From the IMG/VR virus record IMGVR_UViG_2603880148_000009: a stretch of DNA of 4,776 nt. The stretch is one strand, 5' to 3'. Positions 1 to 4,776 of this stretch are shown one piece after another (positions within the stretch are counted from its first letter, which is position 1; the number at the start of each line of letters is the position of its first letter). Both the position numbers and the translations under genes were made by a program. Origin of the DNA: a virus (taxonomy: Duplodnaviria > Heunggongvirae > Uroviricota > Caudoviricetes). The notes below the pieces were generated by a model. The model did no database searches, was not told where the DNA came from, and worked only from the letters and a program-made list of their open reading frames with translations.

Positions 1-64
1 GCAGTTCGCTGCATACCGGTCCGACCCCGTACTGCTCACGCAGCTTATCCAGCAGTGGCATCAT
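1..64 (-). CDS. IS3-family transposase OrfB, 5' fragment (continues beyond window)
   Basis: Mirror of 4723..4776; ATG overlaps orfA stop (ATGA) in the -1 frame, translation [18 protein letters not shown]...; typical orfA/orfB overlap of IS3 family. Confidence 0.6.
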
Positions 65-387
65 TTTTTCCAGAGGCGGTCGAACTCCGCCTTCGCAAAA
101 TAAGCGGAAGCCTGGCGAAGGATATCGTTACTGCGGCGCAGTTCACGATTTTCACGTTCCAGCTCTTTCAGACGCTGACGTTCAGCGCTGGTGAGCCCAC
201 CATCACCGCCCCCGGTATCCCGCTCATGCTGGCGAACCCAGACACGCAGAGTCTCCGGCGTACAGCCAATCTTTGGGGCAATGGAACAAATTGCCGCCCA
301 CTGTGAGTCATATTCATCCTGACTTTCCAGAACCATACGAATCGCCCGCTGACGGACTTCGGGGGAAAAACGAGTATTTTTAGTCAT
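61..387 (-). CDS. IS3-family transposase OrfA (HTH, leucine-zipper-like C-terminus), IS629-like
   Basis: 108-aa [26 protein letters not shown]...; ATG at 385-387 (complement); identical protein to 4400..4726; matches my recollection of IS629/IS1203 OrfA. Confidence 0.9.
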
Positions 388-412
388 CCTGTTTACCTCT
401 TTCTCAGGGAGT

Positions 413-853
413 TTAGTCTCCAGGATTTCCGGGGCGGTTCACTCCGGCATCTTTTTTATTGGTTTGGGGGAGTGGATTAATTACCCTCTCAAGGTGAGAT
501 TTATTGGTCCTGGAGTTTGGACTCGTGGATATAATCGTTCTTCGTGCGCACTCGGTATCATCTTCGACATACTTGGTTGTTTCCTGATTGTTACAGGAGT
601 CGTCAAGTTCTTCTGATGTAAAACCGCAAATGGGGCACGTAACGGGAATTTTGAAAAGCGTTTCTCCGGGTTCCAGAACAAAATTTTCTGCGGTCTGATT
701 TTGCTTCTCATATTTGTGCTCCGCGTCATTGTGAGAGCACATTCTTATTCTGAGTGCCTGTTTAAACTCACTGAAGCTGAGAGCTTCTTCGCCTTCGGCA
801 AGGCCTTCGAAGTATTCTTCGTAAGCCTTTTCCATGATTGTGTCGAAATCCAT
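413..853 (-). CDS. YdfB/YdfC-like prophage protein with CxxC motif; last ~9 codons and stop are encoded by IS sequence (3' end probably disrupted)
   Basis: ORF-track ORF 413..895; I prefer the ATG at 851-853 because it has an AGGTGA Shine-Dalgarno ~7 nt upstream and sits 1 nt after the ydfA stop, whereas the 895 ATG has no SD. Protein begins [17 protein letters not shown]..., contains TCPICG. Reading frame passes the IS junction at 441/442 with no stop. Confidence 0.5.
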
Positions 854-854
854 A

Positions 855-1010
855 TCACTCACCTGAGTTTCTTTCCAGCCAGCGACGGGCACCATTTTCG
901 GTTTTAAACGTTTTGCTTTTGGTATACGTCATCGCGGTGAACGTGCCGTCCTGATTGGGGAACACGCCACATACCAGAGATTCGCTGTTGCCAAGATCGA
1001 TAGTATCCAT
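855..1010 (-). CDS. ydfA: YdfA-like small prophage protein (51 aa)
   Basis: ATG at 1008-1010 (complement) preceded by GAGG SD; protein MDTIDLGNSESLVCGVFPNQDGTFTAMTYTKSKTFKTENGARRWLERNSGE; the 77-aa ORF-track version starts at a TTG at 1086-1088 and is less plausible. Position immediately downstream of dicA matches Qin prophage gene order (recall). Confidence 0.6.
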   Translation of the reverse strand: MDTIDLGNSESLVCGVFPNQDGTFTAMTYTKSKTFKTENGARRWLERNSGE

Positions 1011-1126
1011 GCTGACCTCATTTCCCCTTAACGCCGGGGTGGCGGAACTGTTTGCTGAGAACACCGTGCGGTGTGTTGATGTAAACAAGATTAGTCATAA
1101 CTAACATATTGGTCAAGTGATTTTGT

Positions 1127-1142
1127 ATGTTATGGCTAACAT
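1127..1142. promoter_or_regulatory. Palindrome ATGTTA-TGGC-TAACAT, candidate repressor-binding site between dicA and ydfA
   Basis: Perfect 6-bp inverted arms seen in sequence; shares GTTA...TAAC core with the two palindromes in the dicA-dicC intergenic region. Confidence 0.3.
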
Positions 1143-1151
1143 AATTGATAT

Positions 1152-1182
1152 AATAAAAGATAACTCATTGATGATGTTATCT
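1152..1182 (-). terminator. Candidate intrinsic terminator at dicA 3' end (possibly bidirectional)
   Basis: Inverted repeat AGATAAC (1158-1164) / GTTATCT (1176-1182) with 11-nt loop; T-rich runs on both sides (TTTTATTT on plus 1182-1189; AATAAAA on plus 1152-1157 = U-run on minus). Stem is AT-rich, so weak. Confidence 0.3.
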
Positions 1183-1584
1183 TTTATTTGTCCGCTGACG
1201 GGCTTTTAGTAATTCTTCAAAGAGTTTATTGAAATTTTTTACTCGAGCTCGCATTTCGGCGAGCTGGGTATCCTGTTCTGATTCTGGCAGTGCATTAAAC
1301 AGCTCAAGGAGCTCTAGTTCTTTGGGGGCTAAGGCAACCGGCTTCTCAACAGGTGGTGTTGGTTGCTTGTCTTCATCGCCAAATAGAATCCATGTTGGTG
1401 AGCATTGCAATACTTTGCTGAGGGCAAAAAGGTTCTTCCCTGTAGGTTCACTATCATCCCGTTCCCATTGTGATACAGACACATGGGAGATTTTCAGGGC
1501 TTTAGCAAGAGACCTTTGGGTGTGTTTGAGGTTTTTCCGACGATACCTAATGCGTTCGCCGATGGTTAAATTTTTTGTATCCAT
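1177..1584 (-). CDS. dicA: HTH XRE-family repressor, DicA-like (cI/C2-type prophage repressor)
   Basis: 135-aa ORF MDTKNLTIGERIRYRRKNLKHTQRSLAKALKISHVSVSQWERDDSEPTGKNLFALSKVL...; classic HTH_3 signature (Q-x-x-LA-x-x-x-x-IS-x-x-x-VS-x-WE); matches my recollection of E. coli Qin DicA almost residue for residue; divergent from a cro-like gene. Confidence 0.85.
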   Translation of the reverse strand: MDTKNLTIGERIRYRRKNLKHTQRSLAKALKISHVSVSQWERDDSEPTGKNLFALSKVLQCSPTWILFGDEDKQPTPPVEKPVALAPKELELLELFNALPESEQDTQLAEMRARVKNFNKLFEELLKARQRTNKR

Positions 1585-1586
1585 AG

Positions 1587-1600
1587 TTAGCTAATGCTAA
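1587..1600. promoter_or_regulatory. Palindrome TTAGC-TAAT-GCTAA, candidate operator adjacent to dicA start codon
   Basis: Perfect 5-bp inverted arms, 3 nt from the dicA ATG (1582-1584 complement); lies in the divergent dicA/dicC control region. Confidence 0.35.
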
Positions 1601-1604
1601 ATCG

Positions 1605-1633
1605 TATTGACTATGTTTTTGTTAACATCTATT
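1605..1633 (+). promoter_or_regulatory. Candidate sigma70 promoter for dicC (-35 TTGACT 1605-1610, 17-nt spacer, -10 TATTTT 1628-1633)
   Basis: Hexamers and spacing read directly from sequence; SD AAGGTG at 1654-1659 and ATG at 1668 follow. Confidence 0.35.
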
Positions 1634-1634
1634 T

Positions 1635-1652
1635 TGTTAGCCATGACTAACA
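1635..1652. promoter_or_regulatory. Palindrome TGTTAG-CCATGA-CTAACA, candidate operator overlapping the predicted dicC transcription start
   Basis: Perfect 6-bp inverted arms immediately downstream of the predicted -10; same GTTAG/CTAAC arms as the other two palindromes. Confidence 0.35.
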
Positions 1653-1667
1653 TCTAAGGTGTTTTAA

Positions 1668-1898
1668 ATGCTTAAAACTGACGCTCTTTTGTATTTCGGT
1701 TCAAAAACAAAACTTGCACAAGCAGCAGGTATTCGTTTGGCTTCGCTTTATAGCTGGAAAGGGGATTTAGTTCCCGAAGGTCGCGCGATGCGTCTACAGG
1801 AGGCATCTGGCGGGGAGCTTCAGTATGATCCCAAAGTTTATGACGAATATCGTAAGACGAAGCGGGCGGGGCGGTTGAACAATGAAAATCACTCCTGA
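1668..1898 (+). CDS. dicC: Cro-like regulator DicC-like
   Basis: 76-aa ORF MLKTDALLYFGSKTKLAQAAGIRLASLYSWKGD...; divergent from dicA across an 83-bp region with palindromes; matches my recollection of E. coli DicC. Confidence 0.8.
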   Translation: MLKTDALLYFGSKTKLAQAAGIRLASLYSWKGDLVPEGRAMRLQEASGGELQYDPKVYDEYRKTKRAGRLNNENHS

Positions 1899-2403
1899 AC
1901 AGGCTCGTGAGGCTCTGGATGCCTGGATATGTCGACCAGGAATGACACAGGAGCAGGCGACGATATTAATCACTGAAGCATTCTGGGCTTTGAAAGAGCG
2001 CCCGAACATCGATGTTCAGCGTGTCACATATGAAGGTGGCGCGGTTGATCAGCGAGCGCTTAGCGTTAATCGAGTGAAGATATTTGAACGCTGGAAGGCT
2101 ATCGACACCAGGGATAAGCGTGAAAAGTTCACAGCGCTAGTGCCTGCAATTATGGAGGCTATCCGGATTAGTGATTTCAGGTTGTATCGTGAAATTAGTG
2201 ACGGAAAGAGCATTACGTACATGATCGCTGGGTTAAATAAAGAATATGGCGATGTGGTGGAGTCCGGACTGCTTTTTGCAGATCCTGCCGTTGTAGATCG
2301 TGAAACTGACGAACTTATAGAAAAAGCAATTGCTTTCAAGCTTGCGTATCGACAGCAATACCAACAAAAAGCTGGATGGAATTATGAGCCTTCTTTTTGC
2401 TGA
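1882..2403 (+). CDS. YdaT-like prophage protein (putative toxic/regulatory protein downstream of cro-like gene)
   Basis: 173-aa ORF with ATG at 1882, overlapping dicC 3' end by 17 nt; the position (third gene after repressor/cro) and the general sequence character resemble YdaT-family proteins of Rac-like prophages; family assignment is from recall, not a search. Confidence 0.55.
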   Translation: MKITPEQAREALDAWICRPGMTQEQATILITEAFWALKERPNIDVQRVTYEGGAVDQRALSVNRVKIFERWKAIDTRDKREKFTALVPAIMEAIRISDFRLYREISDGKSITYMIAGLNKEYGDVVESGLLFADPAVVDRETDELIEKAIAFKLAYRQQYQQKAGWNYEPSFC

Positions 2404-3349
2404 ACGCCCACTGGTTATAAACACACAGCTTGCGATGAAGATTGGCTTAAACGAAGCCATTGTGTTGCAGCAACTGCATTACTGGTTGAGAGATACCAAT
2501 TCCGGCATGGAATGTGATGGTGTTCGCTGGATTTACAACACAACGGAACAATGGCTGGCGCAGTTCCCGTTCTGGTCAGAGTCAACGTTAAAGCGCGCGT
2601 TTGCAAGTCTGAAAACGCTGGGGCTTTTGCGTTGCGAAAAGCTCAATAAATCAAAGCGCGACATGACCAATTTCTACACGATCAACTATGGGAGCGATCT
2701 TTTAGATGGTGGCAAATTGAGCGAATCCATCAGTTCAAAATGCGTCGCTCCATCAGGTCAAAATGACATGATGGAAGAGGTCAAAATGAAACGCTCCATT
2801 GGTTCAAAACGACCCAATGTCATCGGGTCAAAATGGCCCGATGATCCTACAGAGAATACAACAGAGATTACTACAGAGAATAAAAACACTTTTCGTCCGG
2901 AAGCTTTGCAACCGGACCAGCAGACGGCTGAACAGGATTTTTTAATCCGGCACCCTGACGCAGTTGTGTTTAGTGCGAAAAAACGGCAGTGGGGTAGCAG
3001 GGAGGATTTGGCGTGTGCGCAGTGGATCTGGGGGCGGATCGTGGGTCTCTACGAACAGGCCGCCAGTGATGATGGCGAGATCATGCGACCAAAAGAGCCT
3101 AACTGGACTGCCTGGGCCAATGACGTGCGCACAATGCGGATGCTGGATGGCAGAAGCCACAGACAAATTTGCGAAATGTTTGGTCGGGTACAGCGAGATC
3201 CATTCTGGGTCAAAAACATCATGAGTCCGTCAAAGCTTCGCGAAAAATGGGATGAGCTGGTTATTCGCCTGGGGCGTTCGCCAATAAAGCGTTGTGTGAA
3301 TCATATTTCTGAACCGGATACCGAAATTCCGCCTGGTTTCAGGGGATAA
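2384..3349 (+). CDS. Phage replication initiator / replisome-organizer-like protein (N-terminal winged-helix DNA-binding domain, central linker containing the origin repeats, C-terminal domain)
   Basis: First ATG at 2384 (the ORF-track start at 2330 is a TTG that overlaps the upstream gene by 74 nt); N-terminus LVINTQLAMKIGLNEAIVLQQLHYWLR is HTH-like; the gene contains a DNA-level iteron array, as lambda O contains ori-lambda. Confidence 0.65.
   Translation: MSLLFAERPLVINTQLAMKIGLNEAIVLQQLHYWLRDTNSGMECDGVRWIYNTTEQWLAQFPFWSESTLKRAFASLKTLGLLRCEKLNKSKRDMTNFYTINYGSDLLDGGKLSESISSKCVAPSGQNDMMEEVKMKRSIGSKRPNVIGSKWPDDPTENTTEITTENKNTFRPEALQPDQQTAEQDFLIRHPDAVVFSAKKRQWGSREDLACAQWIWGRIVGLYEQAASDDGEIMRPKEPNWTAWANDVRTMRMLDGRSHRQICEMFGRVQRDPFWVKNIMSPSKLREKWDELVIRLGRSPIKRCVNHISEPDTEIPPGFRG
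2727..2835 (+). repeat. Iteron array: five direct repeats (consensus about CCATCAGGTCAAAATG) at 23-24 bp periodicity, putative replication origin inside the initiator gene
   Basis: TCAAAA cores at 2735, 2758, 2781, 2804, 2828; flanking bases also conserved (CCATCAGTTCAAAATG / CCATCAGGTCAAAATG / GAGGTCAAAATG / CCATTGGTTCAAAACG / CATCGGGTCAAAATG). Period is not a multiple of 3, so each copy is translated in a different frame, i.e. the repeat is conserved at DNA level, not protein level. Confidence 0.6.
2849..2882 (+). repeat. A-rich 12-bp tandem repeats (ACAGAGAATA / ACAGAGATTA / ACAGAGAATA) immediately downstream of iterons; candidate DNA-unwinding element of the origin
   Basis: Three copies starting at 2849, 2861, 2873, followed by AAAAAC; encodes TENTTEITTENKNT in the initiator linker. 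Confidence 0.4.
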
Positions 3350-3389
3350 GTGTTGATTTCAGGTCATGAGGTAATTTTAAGGGGGACTT

Positions 3390-3818
3390 GTGGCAAAAGT
3401 TTTTACACAAGAAGAGCGGGAAAAAATTAAAGGGCAGGTGGTGGAACTCGTGCGCCAGAGCGGTCGTGAGACGTTACGGCAACTGGAAGCCAAGACAGGT
3501 GCGACAAGATATCTGATGAGCGCTCTTGCCAGAGAGCTGGTTGCCAGTGGCGATGTATACAACTCTGGTTACGGGTTATTCCCGTCTGAACAGGCCCGTA
3601 AGGACTGGCAAAACGCCCGCAAAAAACTCTCGAGGGCAAAGGTGAAGAAACCCGCTGCGGTTGATCCAGACCTTATCTGGTCATTAGCTGACGGAGAAAT
3701 ACGTCGTTACGACAGACATCATAATATAATTTGTAGTGAGTGCCGTAAAAGCGAAGTTATGCAGCGTATATTGTCTTTTTATCAGGGAAATGTTCGATAT
3801 TTATTGAAGTATCAATAA
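3390..3818 (+). CDS. Hypothetical protein (142 aa), unknown function
   Basis: GTG start at 3390 preceded by strong SD AAGGGGG 5 nt upstream; no recognisable Walker motifs; C-terminal ~35 codons are markedly AT-rich; C-terminal HHNIICSECRK motif. Confidence 0.5.
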   Translation: MAKVFTQEEREKIKGQVVELVRQSGRETLRQLEAKTGATRYLMSALARELVASGDVYNSGYGLFPSEQARKDWQNARKKLSRAKVKKPAAVDPDLIWSLADGEIRRYDRHHNIICSECRKSEVMQRILSFYQGNVRYLLKYQ

Positions 3819-3913
3819 CCTATTTAAACATTCCTTAAACTCAGAGTAGACTGGGTTAACAATCTGTTTCAATTGCAAATTGACAATCTATAGCCAGCGC
3901 GACGGGAGTGTTC

Positions 3914-4348
3914 ATGTTTAGTCAGGTTGACATCGGTAGTTTCGGTAGTTTTACGGACCTCAGTTGGAAAAATAGCCTTAAGGATGCAGGTAACAATGTC
4001 CAGAATTTCAAGAGGCTTAACATCCTCTACGGACGGAACTACTCTGGTAAAACTACACTCTCACGAATTTTCCGCGCTTTGGAAACGGGGCGCATTCCAC
4101 ATAACTACGTGGACCCAAATTTTACTATTCGTGGTGACAAAGGTGATGTGACACAGGTAGGTCTTGCTGGTCATGGCTACGATGTTCGCGTCTACAACCG
4201 GGATTTTGTGAGCGATAACCTAAACTTCTTGGTCAATCAGACCGACGGCGAGATCAAGACGTTTGCTATCGTTGGTGAAAAGAATAAAGAAATCGAAGAT
4301 GCCATTACCGCAATTCAAACTAGGTTAGGCAGTGTTGAATCGAAGTGA
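3914..4348 (+). CDS. P-loop NTPase N-terminal fragment (Walker A GRNYSGKTT; AAA_13/ABC-ATPase-like), truncated by IS insertion; the stop codon TGA is the first three bases of the IS
   Basis: ATG at 3914 with GGGAG SD 5 nt upstream (the ORF-track GTG at 3908 overlaps the SD); Walker A at residues ~43-51; no Walker B or further ATPase motifs before the reading frame hits the IS terminus TGAACC at 4346; low GC relative to neighbours. Confidence 0.6.
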   Translation: MFSQVDIGSFGSFTDLSWKNSLKDAGNNVQNFKRLNILYGRNYSGKTTLSRIFRALETGRIPHNYVDPNFTIRGDKGDVTQVGLAGHGYDVRVYNRDFVSDNLNFLVNQTDGEIKTFAIVGEKNKEIEDAITAIQTRLGSVESK

Positions 4349-4399
4349 ACCGCCCCGGAAATCCTGGAGACTAAACTCCCTGAGAAAGAGGTAAACAGG

Positions 4400-4726
4400 A
4401 TGACTAAAAATACTCGTTTTTCCCCCGAAGTCCGTCAGCGGGCGATTCGTATGGTTCTGGAAAGTCAGGATGAATATGACTCACAGTGGGCGGCAATTTG
4501 TTCCATTGCCCCAAAGATTGGCTGTACGCCGGAGACTCTGCGTGTCTGGGTTCGCCAGCATGAGCGGGATACCGGGGGCGGTGATGGTGGGCTCACCAGC
4601 GCTGAACGTCAGCGTCTGAAAGAGCTGGAACGTGAAAATCGTGAACTGCGCCGCAGTAACGATATCCTTCGCCAGGCTTCCGCTTATTTTGCGAAGGCGG
4701 AGTTCGACCGCCTCTGGAAAAAATGA
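4400..4726 (+). CDS. IS3-family transposase OrfA, IS629-like
   Basis: 108-aa ORF identical to the protein of 61..387; run of six A immediately before the stop and orfB ATG overlapping the stop in the -1 frame. Confidence 0.9.
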
Positions 4727-4776
4727 TGCCACTGCTGGATAAGCTGCGTGAGCAGTACGGGGTCGGACCGGTATGC
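4723..4776 (+). CDS. IS3-family transposase OrfB, 5' fragment (continues beyond window)
   Basis: ATG at 4723 overlapping orfA TGA (ATGA), -1 frame relative to orfA; [18 protein letters not shown]... Confidence 0.6.

Follow-up and report, generated by a model that had tools for sequence, protein, structure and literature searches.

An IS629 insertion in a Qin-like Escherichia coli prophage, upstream of a probably retained dicF-dicB module

The stretch of DNA analysed here (the window, 4776 nt) consists of a 3904-bp prophage segment (442-4345) enclosed between two inverted IS629 ends, at 1-441 on the minus strand and 4346-4776 on the plus strand, which are 100% identical to each other; a 436-nt inverted repeat at the left end of the window pairs with 4341-4776 (Table 1). 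The closest uninterrupted relative is a Qin-like prophage adjoining rspB in E. coli 600029 (locus L001), and across 3904 nt the enclosed segment departs from it at a single position (window 3906; 99.97% identity). The gene order in L001 is hokD, an AAA ATPase (798 aa), DUF977, an O-like replication protein, a YdaT-like gene, dicC, dicA, ydfA, a partial ‘ydfB’, about 730 bp without annotation, DicF, dicB, ydfD, exonuclease, xis and int. Window positions 63-4776 (4714 nt) are also 100% identical to contig JNSB01000129.1 of the draft assembly GCA_000705005.1. As this contig is 5574 nt long, the two are not literally the same contig, and the window may derive from a sister assembly or isolate. Related proteins in the protein collection are named E. 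coli 3-105-05_S1_C1/_C3 and 3-475-03_S4_C2. Within the O-like replication gene there are five tandem 23-nt repeats (CATCNGGTCAAAATG...) at 2728-2843 (+), presumably the origin iterons of the lambdoid prophage.

Table 1. Features of the window and their coordinates.
Feature	Position	Strand	Remarks
Left IS629 (IS3 family), first 441 nt from IRL	1..441	-	tip at 441; runs off the window
Left IS629 ALIL frameshift pseudoknot	106..1	-	96.5 bits
Left IS629 orfA	387..61	-	
Chimeric truncated ORF, 146 aa	413..853	-	intact form 191 aa
Left IS629 target-site duplication (3 bp), CTC copy within the window	442..444	.	window ...ggttca/CTCcggcat
ORF106, 3' remnant (codons 50-106)	443..616	+	stop 614-616; cut by IS629 after codon 49/50
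Conserved 19-codon segment E-P-G-E-x-x-F-x-I-P-x-x-C-P-x-C-G-F-x (or E-x-G-E...)	617..673	-	CPICGF at 637..620
ydfA (DUF1391, 51 aa), leading gene of the dicBF-type operon	855..1010	-	Pfam E=8.8e-28; annotated ydfA in L001 and K-12
dicA-ydfA intergenic region, homologous to the DicA/DicC-repressed dicB-operon promoter region of K-12	1085..1160	-	96.5% identity
dicA, 135-aa repressor	1177..1584	-	
dicC, 76 aa, Cro-like	1668..1898	+	
YdaT/CII-like gene	1882-2403	+	
O-like replication initiator	2384-3349	+	
DUF977/Ren-like gene	3390-3818	+	
AAA ATPase (798 aa), first 144 codons, cut by the second IS629	3914..4348	+	IS bases TGA supply the stop
Right IS629 target-site duplication (3 bp), AAG copy within the window	4343..4345	.	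window ...atcgAAG/tgaaccgcc
Right IS629, first 431 nt from IRL	4346..4776	+	inverted relative to the left copy; runs off the window
Right IS629 orfA	4400-4726	+	
Right IS629 ALIL	4681-4776	+	86.8 bits

The divergent regulators dicC and dicA, followed by ydfA, mark the left part of the segment as the start of a Qin-type dicBF operon, and positions 753-1719 share 96.5% identity with dicC-dicA-ydfA-ydfB' of the K-12 Qin prophage. The gene order given in a preliminary description of this DNA (dicA, ydfA and then a longer ORF) is correct, as is its observation that a single nucleotide separates the ydfA stop (857..855) from the next ATG (853..851). The layout of ydfA and ydfB in K-12 is identical (ydfA ends at position 3164 and ydfB starts at 3166 of locus L002), and with this equal spacing the proposed translational coupling of ydfA to the next ORF is plausible. 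Operator-like repeats at 1124-1158 in the dicA-ydfA intergenic region are paired with 1618-1652 as an inverted repeat. The dicB-operon promoter was not flagged by a consensus promoter scan of the region and is therefore placed solely by homology to K-12, for which its location was taken from PMC5069750. In K-12, ydfA-ydfB-ydfC-dicF-dicB-ydfD form one operon with a single promoter upstream of ydfA; DicF is excised from the polycistronic transcript by RNase E, its 3' end arising via termination or RNase III, and induction of the operon is highly toxic, chiefly via DicB (PMC5069750).

The ORF next to ydfA (853..413) is a composite. Its codons 1-34 correspond to the beginning of YdfB (853..752), codons 35-137 belong to an unrelated cassette (751..442), and after these 137 native codons the IS629 sequence supplies nine codons (VNRPGNPGD) and a stop (441..413). 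The preliminary description had already assigned the last nine codons and the stop to the IS, and the junction at 441/442 bears this out. Its suggestion that the ORF is possibly an unsplit ydfB/C frame was refuted: only YdfB residues 1-34 match (100%), up to a mosaic joint at 752/753, and tblastn (E<=10) returned no YdfC match in the window or in L001. Neither the ydfB (42 aa) and ydfC (72 aa) pair of K-12 nor a YdfB-YdfC fusion was recognized here, the window ORF being devoid of similarity to YdfC. Pairwise comparison with K-12 shows collinearity (96.5%) as far as window position 753, resuming upstream of dicF; between these points K-12 has 396 bp (the 3' end of ydfB and ydfC), whereas the window lineage has an unrelated 517-bp cassette (L001 6449-6965), which carries the CPxCGF ORF and the opposite-strand ORF106 and is interrupted by IS629. 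The leader, DicF, dicB and ydfD beyond it are again collinear with K-12, at about 97%, on the neighbouring contig described below and in L001.

In other variants of the cassette, the start of the same-strand ORF aligns with the window ATG at 742..740, behind a ydfA-type leader. This ATG is likely the native start of the CPxCGF gene, and the 34 ydfB codons are thus an in-frame fusion made at the mosaic joint. The annotation of the ORF varies: PGAP gives ‘ydfB, incomplete’ in most genomes and a 191-aa hypothetical protein (WP_000344958.1) in a few. The 146-aa product from ATG 853 was not on record in an exact look-up; a 160-aa form from ATG 895 is recorded for contig JNSB01000129.1 of GCA_000705005.1. 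The ORF matches phrog_35040, a family of unassigned function, and scans of both overlapping ORFs of the cassette against Pfam, NCBIfam, PHROG and PADLOC returned only phrog_35040 and phrog_2061, both uncharacterised. In certain relatives (L018 1716-2531; P0075, P0076, P0078), the minus-strand ORF runs on, with no change of frame, into a C-terminus resembling YdfC (97% identical to that of K-12), giving products of 245-271 aa; the cassette and ydfC can therefore coexist and fuse.

The elements at both window ends were identified as IS629, a member of the IS3 family, by a 108-aa orfA at each end, terminal inverted repeats (TGAACCGCCCCGG...) and a -1 frameshift signal; both ALIL pseudoknots score above the Rfam gathering score of 50 bits. 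The two left inverted repeats (TGAACCGCC...) point toward the enclosed segment, with the IRL tips at 441 and 4346. Annotated copies elsewhere are named IS3-like element IS1203 family, and over 1291 nt the element shows no difference (100% identity) from a 1310-bp IS629 copy in E. coli O157:H7. Its full length of about 1310 bp lies beyond the window and can be followed in the matching assembly, in L006 (1291 nt from IRL) and L022 (1305 nt from IRR). IS629 is abundant in O157:H7 prophages. The copies described here resemble the IS629 (IS1203) elements of EHEC/STEC prophages in sequence, in the 1310-bp length, in possessing orfA/orfB with ALIL and in producing short target duplications, but they differ in their location: the left junction was absent from all 5426 complete E. 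coli genomes searched and was found in only a few draft assemblies. For the right junction, the single full-coverage match in complete E. coli genomes, in strain ECCHD184, proved to be an insertion elsewhere in that gene. An extension of the IS match by 14-16 nt in O157 strains was rejected as chance similarity of the flanks, as the IS begins with TGAACC there too. A five-base extension of the inverted repeat (442-446 and 4341-4345) matches at four of five positions, is explained by neither target-site duplication and was likewise treated as chance.

The preliminary description proposed that the IS had replaced the dicF/dicB cell-division inhibitor region. The absence of both genes from the window was confirmed: Rfam (E<=1) detected no DicF, and tblastn (E<=10) no DicB or YdfC. 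The expectation that they should lie directly downstream is also sound. The complete cassette was found in 795 complete E. coli genomes, with cassette, dicF and dicB contiguous in 791 of these, and in L001 DicF (7184-7235; Rfam 72.5 bits) starts 425 bp past the junction position, with dicB next. The counter-argument named in the preliminary description, namely that homologous genes normally end near position 442 and that dicF/dicB are not normally adjacent, does not apply, since intact homologues of the protein from 853..442 reach 191 aa, extending 54 codons further, and the adjacency holds in 791/795 genomes. The ORF is accordingly truncated at its C-terminus. The window ends within an IS on both sides and so cannot show what lies beyond.

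The other side of the left junction was sought among proteins. The product predicted for it comprises codons 1-49/50 of the opposite-strand ORF continuing into the IS629 right end, in six versions for duplications of 0-5 bp. In a collection of 15 billion proteins, only the product for a 3-bp duplication (62 aa, ...PLGFLSSEPPRVSWRVFYL) was found; the versions for 0, 1, 2, 4 and 5 bp were absent from it, as were products of the AAA ATPase remainder with IS-derived starts. The 62-aa product, recorded for one contig only, is encoded on JNSB01000142.1 (L022) of the same assembly, GCA_000705005.1. The module thus lies on this neighbouring contig, which carries an exonuclease fragment, ydfD, dicB (62 aa), DicF (72.5 bits) and the remainder of the cassette, ending ...ttgtcCTC/tgaaccgccccgggtttcc, the right end of IS629. 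Outside the IS, L022 matches L001 8915..6757 at 100% identity, and its overlap with the native end of the window is exactly CTC.

At the left junction (441/442), homology to the uninterrupted relatives ends at 442, and the IS end (TGAACCGCC, minus strand) begins at 441. CTC adjoins the IS on the window side, and L022 reads ...ttgtcCTC/tgaaccgcc; L001 has a single CTC (GAG on the plus strand, 6757-6759). The right IS629 has a corresponding partner in contig JNSB01000128.1 (L023), which reads ...cggttca/AAGgcgggtctc: here the IRR is followed by AAG and the remainder of the ATPase gene, matching AAG followed by IRL in the window. The flanks of both IS629 copies on the paired contigs rejoin exactly onto L001, and the target is otherwise intact. 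On these junction sequences, we read the left IS629 as a simple insertion with a 3-bp duplication that deleted nothing and moved the module 1313 bp further from ydfA, and the right IS629 likewise as a simple insertion, with the duplication AAG.

With the CTC duplication present and DicF, dicB and ydfD intact on the reciprocal contig, the claimed replacement, or an IS-mediated deletion by which the prophage lost its division inhibitors, becomes very improbable. The appearance that suggested it (no DicF or DicB in the window and an ORF running directly into the IS) has a simpler cause: dicF and dicB look absent because the contig ends inside the IS repeat, the window merely stopping 441 nt into the element, and a loss is contradicted for GCA_000705005.1 by the reciprocal junction in this 100%-matching assembly. 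As the window is not literally JNSB01000129.1, it is from the identical junction that we infer that its own genome retains dicF/dicB. Losses of this kind do occur. The Qin-like prophage of E. coli ECCHD184 (NZ_CP033250.1) has the same backbone at the rspB site; a mobile element comes after ydfA-ydfB' in it, and its copy of the AAA ATPase gene has also received an IS3-family insertion, at another position. Unlike the window lineage, which has suffered no such loss, its locus has an IS66-family element and lacks DicF, dicB, ydfD, exo and xis there. ECCHD184 is therefore a genuine case of the IS-associated module loss proposed earlier for the window.

The two IS629 copies are 100% identical and inverted, with both IRLs facing inward, and a third copy lies beyond hokD. 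Such an arrangement allows a scenario in which the simple insertions came first and the 3.9-kb immunity/replication segment was subsequently inverted by IS-IS recombination, or is mobile as a composite element, so that ydfA would no longer face dicF-dicB across the IS. Short-read contigs break in every IS629 copy, and the orientation of the segment is not readable from them; the duplications record only the original insertions. Neither junction occurs in any complete E. coli genome, so no arrangement can be read there, and with nothing positive in its favour we consider a later inversion or transposition improbable, if less so than a loss of the module. The third IS629 copy (L023 4356-5658, same prophage, same assembly) has the same orientation as the cassette copy and the opposite orientation to the ATPase-gene copy. 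By recombining with one another, the IS629 copies could bring about a deletion or an inversion of the immunity region.

A small contig with 436-nt inverted terminal repeats also has the shape that assemblers can create around repeats, and the IS-flanked structure might be an assembly chimera whose junctions exist in no real genome. The right junction, however, recurs in independent read sets and metagenomes (L007, L008, L009), the left junction is present in two contigs, and both have matching reciprocals with clean 3-bp duplications, which makes a chimera the most remote of the alternatives that we considered.

According to our analysis, the window is therefore best explained, with a probability of roughly 85%, as a short-read contig of an E. 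coli Qin-like prophage with a simple IS629 insertion upstream of a retained dicF-dicB module. The contig would be bounded on both sides by IS629 copies and hence end inside the repeat. The left IS629 would have entered the 517-bp mosaic cassette that separates ydfA/ydfB' from dicF, at a point 425 bp ahead of dicF, in an early-left, dicBF-type operon under the control of DicA and DicC. The insertion would truncate the chimeric ydfB'-CPxCGF ORF after codon 137 and also cut the opposite-strand gene for a 106-aa membrane protein after codon 49/50, while another contig would hold the remainder of the cassette, DicF, dicB and ydfD, on the far side of the IS. As an event, this IS insertion into an E. 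coli prophage is an ordinary one; our literature search found no paper on IS629 with dicF, nor on the JNSB/GCA accessions.

At the other end of the segment, the AAA ATPase gene is broken off by IS629 behind its codon 144. In PADLOC, the ATPase matches PDC-S06, a candidate defence family (1067 bits); its C-terminal region is PrrC-like, and one database source names a homologue ‘wobble nucleotide-excising tRNase’. The insertion consequently inactivates a probable anti-phage gene of the prophage.

In the cassette interrupted by the left IS629, ORF106 (intact at L001 6905..6585) encodes 106 aa with three hydrophobic segments according to hydropathy. It has the features of a family of small membrane proteins of about 100-115 aa with three such segments and the motifs DYWYKA and G-x-F-x-G-L-G-E-W-x-N-H-P, and the window remnant keeps the GLGEW motif. 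The family is uncharacterised and has no Pfam, NCBIfam or PHROG model. Homologues of the same length span 87% to 40% identity; those at 87, 83, 57 and 50% occur in other Escherichia/Yersinia prophages, always near a CI-like repressor. Distant homologues were found in several phyla, in Pseudomonas, Shewanella, Marinobacter, Desulfobacteraceae and others, with 411 clusters at E<=1e-3 in a 50%-identity library. Substitutions at the three codon positions of ORF106 (12/7/34 and 26/18/51) show a third-position excess, and in near-identical pairs all differences are synonymous for ORF106 and non-synonymous on the other strand. From these comparisons we conclude that ORF106 is, by its pattern of conservation, a real gene. 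In another E. coli lineage (P0056), an ORF106-type ORF enters an IS629-type right end after about codon 71 (...VRFIG/LNRPGFPGECF...); this small gene would then have been hit by an IS on a separate occasion.

Over its whole length, ORF106 lies antisense to the minus-strand ORF of the window (L001 6348-6923 (+)), with the codons of the two frames in exact register. The conserved 19-codon segment of the minus-strand ORF adjoins the 5' side of the antisense overlap, and its substitutions across five lineages (6/5/13, 3/5/10 and 8/7/15) fall mostly at position 3 of the minus-strand frame. Across the overlap itself, no stop interrupts this frame in any of five enterobacterial lineages, which reach down to 50% protein identity; per lineage, the probability of such an open frame is 0.06-0.10 under E. 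coli codon usage and 0.01-0.02 under local prophage usage. In distant intact homologues obtained by genome search, the same frame contains 3-17 stops in 11 of 12 cases and none in the twelfth; two metagenome homologues have 12 and 15 stops. The minus-strand frame thus also looks coding in the enterobacterial prophages.

Based on these patterns, the two strands of the cassette may use the same codons for different proteins: ORF106 and a CPxCGF protein of about 150-190 aa specific to enterobacterial prophages, which would begin with the E-x-G-E-x-x-F-x-IP-x-x-CPxCGF segment and then run antisense across all of ORF106. We rate the chances of this at somewhat less than even. Same-register antisense overlapping gene pairs have been reported in E. 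coli, for example in EHEC, and share with the cassette a long stop-free ORF fully antisense to an established gene and some codon-position signal. The cassette differs from them in that the embedded ORF106 is a member of a broad family whose genes have no antisense ORF in other settings. Whichever view of the coding holds, IS629 disrupts both reading frames of the cassette.

Between the cassette and the dicF leader there is a 37-nt motif (GGATACCACCTCGCCTGACGTGGTTAAAAGCAGGCAC; L001 6940-6976), which would lie past the IS in the interrupted prophage. It is 97-100% identical in several Escherichia phages and in PPompW/Stx2a prophages, has partial matches of 83-97% in Salmonella, Klebsiella and Cronobacter phages, and is conserved upstream of ORF106 in Yersinia. 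No Rfam family matched this motif, which lies upstream of ORF106 and is conserved in many lambdoid phages.

The tip of the left IS629 and the prophage flank together form a terminator-like hairpin (CCGGGGCGGTTCACTCCGG, then CATCTTTTTT) at 429-447 (+), with a T-run to 457. It reads outward from the IS toward the remnant of the membrane-protein gene and is a pattern match only; terminator-like sites in the region including 429-447 number four against 1.7 expected.

As for the consequences of the insertion, the 1.3-kb IS629 would stand between the promoter and the inhibitors in the same orientation as the operon and could be expected to lower the expression of dicF/dicB. Two terminator-like sites were found in IS629 against 1.4 expected, which is no more than chance, so some read-through to dicF/dicB is possible. 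We infer that IS629 lengthens the transcription needed to reach dicF/dicB and probably weakens their expression when DicA repression is lifted, without removing the inhibitors, and that the element would act as a partial safety catch instead of a deletion.

In conclusion, the insertion as such matters little, being one more IS629 insertion in an E. coli prophage. It does carry a lesson for the reading of draft genomes: where a gene appears to be absent past an IS at a contig edge, a deletion should be called only once the reciprocal junction has been checked. The interrupted cassette, possibly a conserved opposite-strand, same-register gene pair, is the only element here that would perhaps repay further work. 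The strain itself offers a natural experiment on whether the toxicity of dicF/dicB is blunted when 1.3 kb of IS sequence separates them from the DicA-controlled promoter.
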